From the NCBI GenBank assembly GCA_011372825.1, contig DSAK01000093.1, forward strand, positions 1-30,307: a stretch of DNA of 30,307 nt, read 5' to 3'. Shown in pieces: positions 10,143 to 14,700 of the stretch. Origin of the DNA: Campylobacterota bacterium. Its GTDB lineage: Bacteria > Campylobacterota > Campylobacteria > Campylobacterales > Sulfurovaceae. Numbering within the stretch: position 1 is the first letter of the stretch; the number at the start of each line of letters is the position of its first letter. Under the pieces are notes generated by a model. The model was not told the DNA's origin, searched no databases, and saw only the letters and a program-made list of their open reading frames with translations. A program made the translations under genes and the position numbers.

Positions 10143-10175
10143 AAAAGAAGTAGCAACTCCCAAAATGGGGTTGCT
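10143..10175 (-). terminator. Probable rho-independent terminator after cytochrome c553
   Basis: On the minus strand, AGCAACCCC-ATTTT-GGGAGTTGCT forms a hairpin followed by ACTTCTTTT, starting 6 nt after the stop at 10182. Confidence 0.75.
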
Positions 10176-10181
10176 TATGAT

Positions 10182-10481
10182 TTAAAGACCAGCGATATAA
10201 TCAGCGAGTTCTCTCATAGTAGCATCATCCAAAGAAGCTACCATGTTTTTCATCACTCCACCCATACCATACTTGTTGAGTGTGCCTGCCTTATAACCTT
10301 GCAACTCTTGAAGAGTTGTAGCTGCATTGCGACCTGCAATTACAGCTGATTCTCCATGCGTAACTTGTTTTCTTCCATCAGCGCCATGGCAACTAGCACA
10401 TTTGCTAGCATATGTTACTGCTGGGTCAGCTAGCAAAAATGAAGTGCTAGCAAAAAGTGAAAGGGTAAATATTTTCTTCAT
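10182..10481 (-). CDS. Periplasmic class I monoheme cytochrome c (c553-like)
   Basis: Signal peptide, CASCH heme motif followed by GADG, LQGYKAG, and a candidate axial Met in MGGVM. Confidence 0.9.
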   Translation of the reverse strand: MKKIFTLSLFASTSFLLADPAVTYASKCASCHGADGRKQVTHGESAVIAGRNAATTLQELQGYKAGTLNKYGMGGVMKNMVASLDDATMRELADYIAGL

Positions 10482-10490
10482 GATATATCC

Positions 10491-10811
10491 TTAACAGCCG
10501 GGTATATTTCCTGAATCTGAAGCAAACTCATATGCAAAATCATACAAATCTTCGCTCCATTTATCTTGGTAGCTTTCTGCTACATTTGGGCAAATCTCTT
10601 TTACTTTATCTGCAAAAGTTCCTGCATCTTTTATCTCTTCCCACTTGTCTTGAGTGTAAGTAGCTGCAAATTTTGAACCGCCAAATCCACAACCATCTTT
10701 GAGAAATTTAGAGTAGAGTTTTTGACCTTTAGTAGCATCTGCAAAAGAACCTGTTGTCGCCATTGCAAGTCCAAGAAGAGTTACTAAAGCAAGAGTGGTT
10801 AGTTTTTTCAC
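10491..10811 (-). CDS. Secreted small protein with a cytochrome-c-like N-terminal helix but no CXXCH (uncharacterised)
   Basis: GTG start after AAAGGA, a signal peptide, then ADATKGQKLY. Cys at 41, 74 and 106 (C-terminal residue). The mature region has no His. Confidence 0.8.
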   Translation of the reverse strand: MKKLTTLALVTLLGLAMATTGSFADATKGQKLYSKFLKDGCGFGGSKFAATYTQDKWEEIKDAGTFADKVKEICPNVAESYQDKWSEDLYDFAYEFASDSGNIPGC

Positions 10812-10840
10812 TTTTAGTCCTTTTAATTTAATATTATCAG

Positions 10841-10882
10841 ATTATAACAATACAATTGTGAGAGTATTGTGGATAAATTAAG
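10841..10882 (-). promoter_or_regulatory. Extended -10 promoter with upstream 11-bp-periodic direct repeat (candidate response-regulator site)
   Basis: TGTTATAAT at 10849-10841; CACAAT at 10871-10866 and 10860-10855, plus a degenerate CTTAAT at 10882-10877. Confidence 0.6.
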
Positions 10883-10929
10883 AAATACTTTTTGTTGCAC
10901 TGCTCTAGCATTTTATGTATAGGGTATCT

Positions 10930-11265
10930 CTACTCTAATCTACCAATCACTTTATACTTTTCCCAGTAGATATTAATAGCTTCACGCAACTCCTCTTCAT
11001 CGATTTCAAGTGGCTCTTTTATCCCATAACGATCAATAAACAAATCGGGCATCACCGATATATCTCGAGCTGGATAACGAAAATAGTGTCTAAGTCCCAC
11101 TTTTACATTATTCTCTCCACCATATGCAGCCAAATATTTCATAAACATATTCTGTAAAGAAGAAGGGAGTGAGACATGACATGGAATGCAATGTTTTTCA
11201 TAGGCATTCTCTGCCAGAGCAAATCCACTTAAAAGCAACAGAAATAATATCTTTTTTATCACCAT
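10930..11265 (-). CDS. Uncharacterised exported monoheme c-type cytochrome
   Basis: Signal peptide ending ALA-E, CIPCH at residues 26-30, and a possible distal Met (SVMP). Its start overlaps the kinase stop by 7 nt. Confidence 0.75.
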   Translation of the reverse strand: MVIKKILFLLLLSGFALAENAYEKHCIPCHVSLPSSLQNMFMKYLAAYGGENNVKVGLRHYFRYPARDISVMPDLFIDRYGIKEPLEIDEEELREAINIYWEKYKVIGRLE

Positions 11266-12446
11266 CTTAACACCACCGTTGCACCTTGATTCTCTTTTGA
11301 GTGTACCTCAATAGATATATTATACTCATCTAAGATTTTTTTTACTATACTAAGCCCTATCCCAAACCCCCCTTCACTTTGATTGAAACGGATGTATCTA
11401 TCAAACATATAAGGAATCTGCTCTGGATTGATACCTATTCCTGTGTCGCTAATACTCAAAAATCCTTCTCGTAAAAAAACTACTATTTGCCCATTTCTTT
11501 TGTTGTATTTAATAGCATTTGATAGAAGATTATCAATAACCCTTGTTATCTTATGGGGGTTAATAGTAAGTATTGTTGGTGATAGAATCGCCTCAAAGAC
11601 TATCTCTTTTGATTTAGCTAAGGTATCAAAATACTCAATTCTATTTTCTAGCAATGCTTTTAGATCAACCTCTTCATTTTTACTTTCTAAATTATAATCT
11701 AAAAACAAATATGTCAAATCATTATAGAGCACTGAGACAGTTTTTGCTGCTGTACTGATGCGGTCAACCCTCTTTTTGTTGTTCTTGTCCATACTTGCAG
11801 TATCCATCATCTCAATATTTGCAAGTATAGTACTTAATGGGGTGTTTAGCTCATGGGTTGTATCTTTTATGAAACGGTCTAGTAGCATTATAGAGTTACG
11901 CATAGGTCCTAGAAAAAGCTTAGAAAAATAGAGTCCAAAAAGTGCGAAAACAAACCAACCAATTCCCCCGAACAAAAAAATCATCCTCCATGCTTCAGAC
12001 TGCCATAACTTATCATCTTCAATCTCCAAAAAAAGATATTTGGCCCCCAAATAATACTCATCTAGCATCTTAACAAAATAGATCTTATCCTCATGTATAT
12101 AAGTCTCTTTGTCAAAAATAACATTTTTTGTATCAAGAAGCGAAAATATCTCAACATACTCAAGATCATAAATGGCACTTTTAAACCGTGAATCTCTAGG
12201 ATAAGTGCGTCTTTCATCAAAGTAATGGTGGAGAGTTTTTAATTTTTTGATATGCTCATAGGCATAATTTGCCAAAATTCCCCTTTTGTTTGAAAGCATG
12301 ATTTTTTCTTGACTTTGATAATAAAAAATTGCAATTAAAACAATAATTCCAGTTGTCATCAAAAGATAAAGGATAAAAAAACGGACAAGAGATTGTTTTT
12401 CACTCTTGAGTAACGAACTTGTACCCCTGTTTTTTAATACTTGCAA
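11259..12446 (-). CDS. Sensor histidine kinase (HisKA + HATPase, two TM segments, periplasmic loop of about 110 aa)
   Basis: H-box FIKDTTHELNTPL, N-box NLLSNAIKYN, G1 DTGIGI and G2 GGFGIGLSIV; TTG start with AAGGA 5 nt upstream. Confidence 0.95.
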   Translation of the reverse strand: MQVLKNRGTSSLLKSEKQSLVRFFILYLLMTTGIIVLIAIFYYQSQEKIMLSNKRGILANYAYEHIKKLKTLHHYFDERRTYPRDSRFKSAIYDLEYVEIFSLLDTKNVIFDKETYIHEDKIYFVKMLDEYYLGAKYLFLEIEDDKLWQSEAWRMIFLFGGIGWFVFALFGLYFSKLFLGPMRNSIMLLDRFIKDTTHELNTPLSTILANIEMMDTASMDKNNKKRVDRISTAAKTVSVLYNDLTYLFLDYNLESKNEEVDLKALLENRIEYFDTLAKSKEIVFEAILSPTILTINPHKITRVIDNLLSNAIKYNKRNGQIVVFLREGFLSISDTGIGINPEQIPYMFDRYIRFNQSEGGFGIGLSIVKKILDEYNISIEVHSKENQGATVVLRW

Positions 12447-13086
12447 TCGAATCCTTACCTATAATTTTTCTAATATTCTTAATGTAAGTTCTTAGTGCTG
12501 TATCACTTGGCTCCTCATCATAATCCCATAAATGCTCATAGATAAACTCATGAGAAAGGACCTCTCCAATATGTTGCATAAAAAGCTTGAGAAGCTTGGA
12601 CTCTTTGTTTCCAAGTGAAATATGTTCCCCATTTACAATCAAATCATTTCCAGAGATATCATACGATATCCCTTTACCTAAAGATATCTCATTTTTTGAC
12701 TCATGAAAAAACTCTCGTCGCAAAAGTGTCTCTACCCTAATAAAAAGCTCTTTTAACTCAAAAGGTTTACGAATGTAATCATCGCAACCACTTACAAAAC
12801 CCTCCTCTAAATCATCAACACTATTTAGTGAAGTGATAAAAATTGCTGGAGTTTGCAGCCCTGCATCTCTAGCATCTTTTAAAAGTGTAAAGCCATTTAA
12901 ACCAGGGACATTTACATCAAGTAAAAGTAAGTCGTACCTAGTCTCATAAAGCTTATCTTGTGCCTCAATCCCATCATAAACACTCTCAACAAGATAGCCT
13001 TTAGATTCTAAAAAATCGACAATTGTTTCATTGAGCGTTGCATCGTCTTCAAGCAAAAAAATTTTACTTTTGTTTTTTGATTCCAT
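12400..13086 (-). CDS. OmpR/PhoB-family response regulator
   Basis: Receiver motifs LLEDD, LLLDVNVPG and DDYIRKPF; winged-helix LRTYIKNIRK and GYKF. Start is ATG 13086, because the ATG at 13116 sits inside the -10 box. Confidence 0.95.
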   Translation of the reverse strand: MESKNKSKIFLLEDDATLNETIVDFLESKGYLVESVYDGIEAQDKLYETRYDLLLLDVNVPGLNGFTLLKDARDAGLQTPAIFITSLNSVDDLEEGFVSGCDDYIRKPFELKELFIRVETLLRREFFHESKNEISLGKGISYDISGNDLIVNGEHISLGNKESKLLKLFMQHIGEVLSHEFIYEHLWDYDEEPSDTALRTYIKNIRKIIGKDSIASIKKQGYKFVTQE

Positions 13087-13114
13087 ATAGAGCCCTATCA
13101 AAAAAGTTAAAGCC

Positions 13115-13123
13115 ATTATATCA
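13115..13123 (-). promoter_or_regulatory. Extended -10 element for the response regulator-kinase-cytochrome operon
   Basis: TGATATAAT about 30 nt upstream of ATG 13086. Confidence 0.6.
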
Positions 13124-13205
13124 CAGTTAAATACAAAAGATTATCTCACTTTTATGTTTGAATAATTATTGAGTTCTGCTAAATTCACCCAATAAGAAAT
13201 ATTTA

Positions 13206-13607
13206 GTGTTACAAAAAAGTTTTATTTTTATTTTTTTACTCTTCATGCCACTCTTTGCAAAAGAGCACTAAGACAATTGTCTCCTTGAGACGCATACCAT
13301 CCCTAAGGATGCTATCATTATAGATGTAAGAACATCAAAAGAGTTTCAAAGTGGCCATCTAAAAGGCGCTATCAATATCACATATCTTTTGAAGAGAATG
13401 GAAAACGAACAGTAAATTCAAATTTTGTTGAGCAAGTCAATAAGCTAACAGACGAAGATTACGAAGTGCCAATTGTTGTTATATGCAGGATTGGTCACTG
13501 CTCTTTAGAAGTAGCAAAAGTTTACACAAAGAGAACTATGAAAATATCACCAATGTTAAAAAAGAATTTTTTAGAGACTGAAAAAAGCTGGACTACTTAT
13601 AGAGTAG
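13206..13607 (+). pseudogene. Decayed exported rhodanese-domain (sulfurtransferase) gene
   Basis: GTG 13206 gives a signal peptide MLQKSFIFIFLLFMPLFA-KEH and then TAA 13269-71. The same frame continues DAIIIDVRTSKEFQSGHLKGAINI. After a frameshift near 13381 comes ...PIVVICRIGHCS (Cys 13484-86), and after further shifts ENITNVKKEFFRD*K and AGLLIE* (TAG 13605-07). Confidence 0.85.
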
Positions 13608-13608
13608 T

Positions 13609-14700
13609 CTAGTTTTTCGTTTGATGTTTTGTGACAGTTTTTTCAATCTTTTTTCTCTCTAAGAGCATACGATCTTGAAAAAGTTTGCTCTTATCTTTTG
13701 CAAACGCTTGCATATCAACTACTTCGTCCATTTCATCAACTATCTCTACCCCAAGCAAAGCTTCAAACACATCTTCAAAGGTGACAACTCCACTTGTTTG
13801 ACCGTAGCTATCATGTACTATAAAAAGGTGGGATTTTCGTTTGACAAACAAATCTATCAAAGCAGAAACAGGTAAATTTTCTGAGATACGATGCACCTCT
13901 ATAGCTATATCACCTATCTTTGTGTCACCTCTTTCTTCAACACTCTCTTCTAAAATAGATTGACTCAAGACAATACCAACAATATCATCAATAGATTCAT
14001 TGTAAACTGGTATCCTGGAGTGAACATACATTCTGTCGTCTCCTAAGGCCTCTTCTACAGTTGTATCAACGCTCAAAGCAAAAACAACACTCCTTGGTGT
14101 CATAATCTCTTTTGATTTTATATTTTTAAGCTTCAAAAGATTCTCTATGAGCGTGCTCTCTTTGCTCAAAATAGAGCCATCTTTCTTGCCCATAGCAACA
14201 ATTGTCATTATCTCATCGCGAGAAAAATTGGTATCTGTTTTTTTCCCTTTTGAGATAAAATCTGTAATAAACCCAGAAAGCCAAACAAGTGGATAAGTAA
14301 TCTTGATAAAAAAAGATATCACAAAAGAGGCTGGTAATAGAAGTTGCTTCCAATAAAGTGCGCCAATGGTTTTAGGGATAATCTCAGATACATACAAAAT
14401 AAGCAGTGTGAGTACAAAAGCAATTAGTGCTTGCCATTGTGTCCCAAAAAGTATTTGTGCTTGAGCTCCAACTCCTGCTGCACCCATTGTGTGTGCAAAG
14501 GTGTTAAGAATCAAGATAGATGCAATTGGCTCATCGATATCAAGCTTAAATCGCTTCAGCCTCTCGACGGCTTTTGGGGATTGAGTTTTAGATAGACTCT
14601 CAATATACGAATTGGTACTTGAGAGTAATACCGCTTCTAGGATAGAACAAACAAAAGAGACAAAAAGAGCCAAAAAAAGATAGATAAAAAGAAGTGTCAT
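13609..14700 (-). CDS. CNNM/CorC-HlyC family transporter (DUF21 TM domain + CBS pair)
   Basis: SFVCSILEAVLLS, ILILNTFAH, SEIIPKTIG, EIMTPRSVV, HSRIPVY, DSYGQTSGVVTFED and EIVDEMD motifs. Likely start is ATG 14700 (AAGGTG 7 nt upstream); GTG 14709 is an alternative. Confidence 0.92.
   Translation of the reverse strand: MTLLFIYLFLALFVSFVCSILEAVLLSSTNSYIESLSKTQSPKAVERLKRFKLDIDEPIASILILNTFAHTMGAAGVGAQAQILFGTQWQALIAFVLTLLILYVSEIIPKTIGALYWKQLLLPASFVISFFIKITYPLVWLSGFITDFISKGKKTDTNFSRDEIMTIVAMGKKDGSILSKESTLIENLLKLKNIKSKEIMTPRSVVFALSVDTTVEEALGDDRMYVHSRIPVYNESIDDIVGIVLSQSILEESVEERGDTKIGDIAIEVHRISENLPVSALIDLFVKRKSHLFIVHDSYGQTSGVVTFEDVFEALLGVEIVDEMDEVVDMQAFAKDKSKLFQDRMLLERKKIEKTVTKHQTKN

Follow-up and report, generated by a model that had tools for sequence, protein, structure and literature searches.

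We analysed a 30,307-nucleotide stretch of DNA (contig DSAK01000093.1, positions 1 to 30,307; hereafter the window) from a Campylobacterota bacterium of the Sulfurovaceae, whose genome is a metagenome-derived assembly (GCA_011372825.1, 69% complete). A search for sequencing runs that contain this stretch listed none, RNA runs included. Its minus strand carries five head-to-tail genes that encode a response regulator, a sensor histidine kinase, a 111-residue putative cytochrome c (defined as "p111"), a 106-residue protein ("p106") and a cytochrome c553. The invariant core of the arrangement is regulator, kinase and p111, and p106 is facultative. Below we describe the locus and its relatives and develop the proposal that p111 may serve the kinase as a haem-bearing sensing partner. 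Features lie on the minus strand unless stated otherwise.

The first gene (12400..13116) encodes an OmpR/PhoB-type response regulator, in which Pfam identifies the receiver domain (Response_reg, PF00072, 1.5e-21) and the winged-helix domain (Trans_reg_C, PF00486, 4.4e-19) that define this family. Its true start is probably the second ATG, at 13086, which gives a protein of 228 amino acids, because the first ATG falls within a predicted extended -10 box (TGTGATATAAT, 13115..13125) that we assign to the regulator-kinase-p111 transcript. The regulator orthologue of the nearest relative (L142) has the same length, 228 amino acids. The kinase (11259..12446) matches HisKA (PF00512) and HATPase_c (PF02518) and is a classical transmembrane kinase, with two membrane segments, a periplasmic domain of about 105 amino acids (residues 44-152) and a HisKA histidine, His198, that is invariant in 37 aligned sequences (alignment A5). 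The sole possible start of its frame is the TTG at 12446, and the gene therefore overlaps that of the regulator by 47 nt. At its other end it overlaps p111 by 7 nt (ATGGTGA), with the kinase stop codon lying over the p111 ATG. The p111 gene (10930..11265) encodes an N-terminus that resembles a signal peptide, followed by CIPCH, and the product is a putative exported cytochrome c on the basis of alignments A2 and A4 and a fold match. Signal peptides of the cluster products were judged by eye.

Between p111 and p106 is a direct repeat with an 11-bp period (10855..10872), CCACAAT (10872-10866)-N4-TCACAAT (10861-10855), which is the predicted site of the regulator. An extended -10 box (TGTTATAAT, 10841..10849), read from the sequence, lies 8 nt 3' of the repeat and would start the p106-c553 transcript. 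The p106 product (10491..10811) is putatively exported and has three cysteines without a CXXCH (alignment A1; fold). The last gene (10182..10481) encodes a cytochrome c553 that exceeds the Pfam gathering scores of both Cytochrom_C (PF00034; 33.9 bits, cut-off 21.3) and Cytochrome_CBB3 (PF13442; 32.8 bits, cut-off 27). Downstream of it is a terminator-like hairpin (10152..10175; -13.5 kcal/mol, z -3.35) with a U-rich tail. A preliminary description of the window, made from its letters alone, had reported the five co-oriented genes, the kinase overlaps, a direct-repeat promoter ahead of the last two genes, the terminator and a decayed rhodanese gene divergent from the regulator (13206..13607, plus strand), and all of these were confirmed.

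Conservation of the regulator-kinase-p111 triad and of the promoter downstream of it

Both the gene triad and the architecture of the promoter that follows it are conserved. A scan of species-representative genomes yielded 141 loci, 80 of which were kept; these come from Sulfurovaceae, Sulfurimonas and Arcobacteraceae, and include Malaciobacter halophilus, Poseidonibacter lekithochrous and Halarcobacter. Kinase and p111 genes are immediate neighbours in 79 of these loci, and the regulator is upstream of the kinase in 75 (four more loci stop at a contig edge). When the window proteins were searched by tblastn against 40 fetched loci, p111 was directly 3' of the kinase wherever the contig allowed. 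The idea that these genes form a unit, put forward in the preliminary description, is borne out for the triad by its conserved co-occurrence in the neighbourhood comparison. Second, divergent systems in the same genomes also keep the triad, with kinases 33-39% and p111 proteins only 22-27% identical.

Two genomes have such a paralogue triad beside the same TolC/adaptor/resistance-nodulation-division (RND) efflux system (L048:51-6333 and L049:4207-12003), upstream of it in one genome and downstream in the other. A small exported DUF1104 gene is immediately 5' of the regulator in 44 loci, which are all the loci where it was detected (e.g., L036:3957-4199 and L041:3965-4186). Its carriers are Arcobacteraceae, Sulfurimonas and others, comprising most lineages outside the window's genus; the gene was detected neither in the window nor in its genus.

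Across an even sample of the phylum, p111 is present in 80 of 401 genomes. The five families that carry it do so in 16/20, 17/23, 18/19, 8/8 and 4/4 genomes, and none was detected in two large families (0/118 and 0/158, together 0/276 genomes), which we take to be host-associated groups, probably including Campylobacter. The commonest output gene is c553, which follows p111 in 56 of the 80 loci; p106 is present after p111 in 32. In Sulfurovaceae p106 comes before c553, in Arcobacteraceae after it, and in 20 loci of the latter family a 180-amino-acid glycine-zipper protein follows. For two genomes (G010 and G015), the operon c553 is the sole stand-alone c553 of high similarity.

The repeat (T/C)CACAAT-N4-(T/C)CACAAT, with its 11-bp period, is upstream of whichever gene comes after p111, in three families. 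This bears out the earlier suggestion that p106 and c553 have a direct-repeat promoter of their own. The strict pattern was found in 43 of 69 evaluable loci, and about 11 more have a one-base variant. Spacing is similarly constrained, with 6-8 nt from the end of the repeat to the -10 box and about 57-64 nt from the repeat to the start codon. In five Arcobacteraceae genomes (2.6-3.6 Mb), the exact pattern YCACAATNNNNYCACRAT occurs exactly once per genome, always at this site. The pattern TCACRAWNNNNYCACRAT occurs twice in both G010 and G015, one copy being that of the operon and the other preceding a second p106 gene; at one mismatch, pattern counts in these two genomes were no higher than in the control. 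The CACAAT repeat is absent from the regulator's own promoter, in the window as in the upstream regions of its orthologues, and was not found upstream of p106 homologues in eight further loci from other genomes (L053-L060), several of which are without p111. Direct repeats in place of a -35 box are the layout of PhoB-type activators. The window repeat sits where a -35 box would be and is a putative binding site of the regulator.

Many loci carry the repeat as TTCACAAT-N3-TTCACAAT, which contains a TTCAC-N6-TTCAC tag; the window has CCACAAT-N4-TCACAAT. One alternative to the sensing partnership is a metal or envelope-stress response like CrdRS of Helicobacter or DccRS of Campylobacter, with c553 and p106 as stress-adjusted periplasmic proteins. 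In its favour, the tag within the repeat is that of cre/blr (PMC13214185), a paralogue triad adjoins an RND pump, and DccRS controls periplasmic and membrane proteins (PMC7118207). However, the output here is a respiratory carrier, p111 was detected in none of the 276 genomes of the families taken as host-associated, and the regulator scores far below all curated NCBIfam cut-offs, including those of CreB and CopR (for the CreB equivalog NF008296, 108.8 bits against a cut-off of 273). We consider a stress response of this kind improbable.

p111 and its predicted complex with the kinase

The CXXCH of p111 (C26, C29 and H30) is invariant in 21 aligned sequences (A2), and Met72 is kept in the 13 closer orthologues (A4). 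Pfam and NCBIfam searches identified no family for p111 or p106, profile searches of the sequences of solved structures with either protein gave nothing significant, and a Foldseek search with p111 returned no match at E ≤ 0.001. The predicted structure of p111 (predicted local distance difference test score, pLDDT, 86) matches class I cytochromes c, with a Z of 6.3 and a root-mean-square deviation (rmsd) of 3.7 over 81 residues in one case and a Z of 5.9 and an rmsd of 2.5 over 72 residues in another. Its top fold matches are nearly all cytochromes c, yet at moderate Z (6.3-5.0). This fold match of moderate Z suggests that p111 is a monohaem class I cytochrome c.

Thirteen residues of the kinase periplasmic domain (44-152) are invariant in 37 sequences (A5). 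Pairwise complex prediction had been recommended in the preliminary description, and a model of this domain with mature p111 reached a score of 0.62, compared with 0.01 for the best of three controls. By rough counts, with own alignments used, 58 of 80 solved complexes and two of 110 mismatched pairs reach the 0.62 mark. Contact agreement between runs was at least 98%, and the pLDDT of the partner was at least 74. Among the 21 interface residues of the model are nine of the 13 invariant ones (His73, Phe76, Tyr82, Asp94, Ile100, Phe101 and Tyr132-Gly134; hypergeometric P = 3e-5), an enrichment that is not independent of the model because the same alignments feed both. Binding of p111 to the periplasmic domain of the kinase is a prediction that this complex model supports.

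Along with that dependence, several points weigh against p111 as a sensing partner of the kinase. The complex was modelled without haem and with own unpaired alignments. No fusion of p111 with the kinase, or with any longer protein, was scored, although this is weak evidence. The paralogue triad beside the RND system is easier to reconcile with a chemical or metal cue than with a readout of cytochrome-pool redox, and the DUF1104 protein could be the true accessory protein. Finally, the adjacency of the kinase and p111 genes is also to be expected if p111 is just a co-expressed carrier.

The last of these points belongs to another explanation, namely that p111 is just a co-transcribed periplasmic carrier or a member of the regulon, and that the kinase senses alone through its own periplasmic domain. 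The predicted fold of p111 resembles that of ordinary class I cytochromes c, small cytochromes are also encoded next to it, and adjacency by itself is no proof of binding. On the other hand, even divergent paralogue systems with different outputs retain p111 beside the kinase, the p111 gene is translationally coupled to that of the kinase and lies upstream, not downstream, of the regulated promoter, and the kinase-p111 complex model passed its controls. On this evidence a mere carrier role seems unlikely, if less so than the stress response considered above.

A second explanation keeps the interaction and changes its meaning: p111 would report on cytochrome c maturation or haem supply, with apo-p111 binding the kinase and lowering c553 when haem attachment is limiting. 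A parallel exists in E. coli, where apo-TorC reportedly acts on TorS. The output gene encodes a c-type cytochrome and the complex model that passed contained no haem, both as this explanation would have it. Nothing here separates apo- from holo-p111, however, and the RND-linked paralogue triad has no cytochrome output. We regard a role in reporting maturation as unlikely too, placing it between the carrier and stress explanations in probability.

p106, its porin-linked copies and the rhodanese remnant

The p106 family comprises 381 clusters, and the domain is invariably C-terminal in the protein. In a 20-sequence alignment (A1), Cys41, Cys74 and the terminal cysteine (Cys106 in the window) are invariant, and His52 is nearly so; the window's copy has Tyr at this position. 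The family has CG(F/M)xG at the position equivalent to CXXCH (A1), and its fold resembles cytochrome c weakly (Z 4.4). A 206-amino-acid metagenomic protein (P0094) is a natural fusion of a c553-like CXXCH domain and a p106 domain, and its domain order mirrors the gene order of Arcobacteraceae.

In several families of the order, a second copy of p106 is directly 5' of a gene for a DUF3373 outer-membrane porin (1.8e-114), a relative of C. jejuni Omp50 (E 9.4e-6). The pair was seen at L014:8001-10007 and in L016, L018, L020, L021, L027, L029, L032, L053, L055 and L056, and it also occurs in genomes without the p111 system. Within a genome, the operon and porin-linked copies of p106 share 92-98% DNA identity (L013/L014, L019/L020 and L026/L027), and between clades the copies share about 60-67%. 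This pattern points to gene conversion or repeated duplication, judging from the sequences. The second p106-porin locus of the window's genome (L061:100-900, contig C83) is decayed: p106 has stops and frameshifts and the porin is reduced to its last ~150 residues, and the upstream CAC repeat can still be made out. Taken with the decay of the rhodanese gene, this remnant suggests that gene loss may be ongoing.

Comparison of the rhodanese remnant of the window with the intact 134-amino-acid orthologue of L142 revealed a CAA-to-TAA nonsense codon and frameshifts from at least three single-base deletions. The CRIGH active-site loop is retained and the intact reading frame is lost. The rhodanese was ruled out as part of the unit: no match to it was found in 40 loci of relatives (L013-L052), and the sole intact copy is that of L142. 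Between the convergent ends of the remnant and of a CNNM transporter gene there is a 16-bp palindromic hairpin (13583-13617), which could be a two-way terminator.

The preliminary description had read the cluster as a sensing and electron-transfer unit, possibly responding to redox or sulfur species; in a sulfur-sensing module the rhodanese and the cytochromes would act jointly in periplasmic sulfur chemistry. A real, conserved unit is what we found, and it is the sulfur part that finds no support. In favour of sulfur-species sensing are the intact exported rhodanese divergent from the regulator in L142, the sulfur-oxidising lineages in which the system occurs, and the invariant cysteine at the end of p106. 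Against it, the rhodanese is decayed in the window and gave no match in the 40 loci of relatives, SoxZ was not found in four of the five genomes of the window's genus, and sox is regulated by a separate paralogue (PMC12936845). A sulfur-sensing module is accordingly very improbable.

That paralogue is SulRS, which in Sulfurimonas hydrogeniphila is encoded upstream of soxXYZAB and binds TTACA direct repeats (PMC12936845). The window pair could itself have been SulRS, the thiosulfate-responsive regulator of soxABXY1Z1, given that both are OmpR-type pairs of Campylobacterota with direct-repeat sites of 11-bp period (PMC12936845). However, the SulR site consists of TTACA repeats, not CACAAT, and the window has no sox genes. 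This identity was ruled out because both systems coexist in one genome, G040, which has a sox-adjacent pair (44% identity to the window regulator and 40% to the window kinase) plus a separate p111 triad. In the same genome, a porin-linked p106 and its DUF3373 gene are directly upstream of the SulRS-like pair and soxZ (L027:8001-14446), and no CACAAT repeat was found in front of this p106-DUF3373 pair.

Proposed mechanism and comparison with known systems

In combination, the evidence leads us to lean modestly towards a three-component system, in which p111 and the kinase together act as a periplasmic sensor that relies on haem and the regulator activates the c553 promoter, the signal being a redox state or a haem ligand. 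As a dedicated periplasmic monohaem cytochrome c, p111 would bind the small periplasmic domain of the kinase, and its haem would report a periplasmic condition to it, most likely how oxidised or reduced the pool of c-type cytochromes is, or else the presence of a small haem ligand. The phosphorylated regulator would then bind CACAAT-N5-CACAAT, replacing a -35 box, and activate one c553 promoter. In the window's lineage the same promoter would drive p106, and a second site would precede the p106-porin locus. The binding of the regulator to the repeat, activation as opposed to repression, and the identity of the signal are inferences.

More tentatively, and with less confidence than we place in the three-component system, a periplasmic c-type cytochrome may be the obligate sensing subunit of a whole kinase subfamily in free-living Campylobacterota. 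Through this subunit the cell would sense how reduced its periplasmic cytochrome pool is, or else a haem ligand such as O2, NO or sulfide, and tune c553 synthesis, and paralogues would reuse the design for other outputs, e.g., an efflux pump. To our knowledge, the regulation of respiration in Campylobacterota is known almost solely from Campylobacter and Helicobacter. If p111 is a co-sensor, the system would indicate how their sulfur-oxidising and microaerophilic relatives at vents, in sediments and in the sea adjust their main periplasmic electron carrier to the prevailing conditions, and a c-type cytochrome would be added to the few separate haem proteins known to control kinases. The regulator seems to control just one or two promoters per genome, and the system therefore looks easy to test.

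No characterised system was found to match the cluster, as the preliminary description had also stated, and the literature searched, the coverage of which was incomplete, yielded no account of a comparable cytochrome linked to a kinase. Several known systems share parts of the design. SulRS is from the same phylum and likewise has an OmpR-type regulator, a kinase with two membrane segments and a repeat of 11-bp period next to the operon that it controls. Unlike the window system, it lacks a cytochrome gene behind that of the kinase, uses TTACA half-sites and regulates sox instead of c553.

The DccR box of C. jejuni is reportedly TTCAC-N6-TTCAC-like, as work by Wosten in 2010 is said to have described; our text search of the literature for this box found only the cre tag. 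With DccRS and CreBC the window system would share direct repeats of this type and a small regulon of periplasmic and membrane proteins (PMC7118207, PMC13214185). DccRS differs in that the two large families that probably include Campylobacter yielded no p111. We treat the relation to DccRS and CreBC as leads only.

Parallels in logic are systems in which a periplasmic accessory protein or cytochrome informs a kinase on respiration, as proposed here: TorS/TorT/TorC of E. coli and PrrBCA (RegB/SenC) of Rhodobacter. As in the window triad, the accessory gene is inside the regulatory operon. The proteins belong to other families, however, with TorC being the regulated product itself and PrrC a copper protein, and we know of no dedicated monohaem cytochrome coupled to the kinase gene in either the Tor or the Prr system. 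In H-NOX/HnoK and NosP/NahK, a separate haem protein encoded beside the kinase binds and modulates it, as p111 is proposed to do. These partners, however, reside in the cytoplasm, contain b-type haem and belong to unrelated folds, whereas p111 would be a periplasmic c-type cytochrome that binds an extracytoplasmic domain. Haem c sensing outside the cytoplasm, as proposed here, is known from periplasmic sensor domains, including those of Geobacter chemoreceptors and DcrA and a Cache-type c-haem domain described in a preprint (PMC12889525). In these receptors the haem domain is inside the receptor polypeptide, whereas in the system of the window the haem would be carried by a separate small cytochrome.

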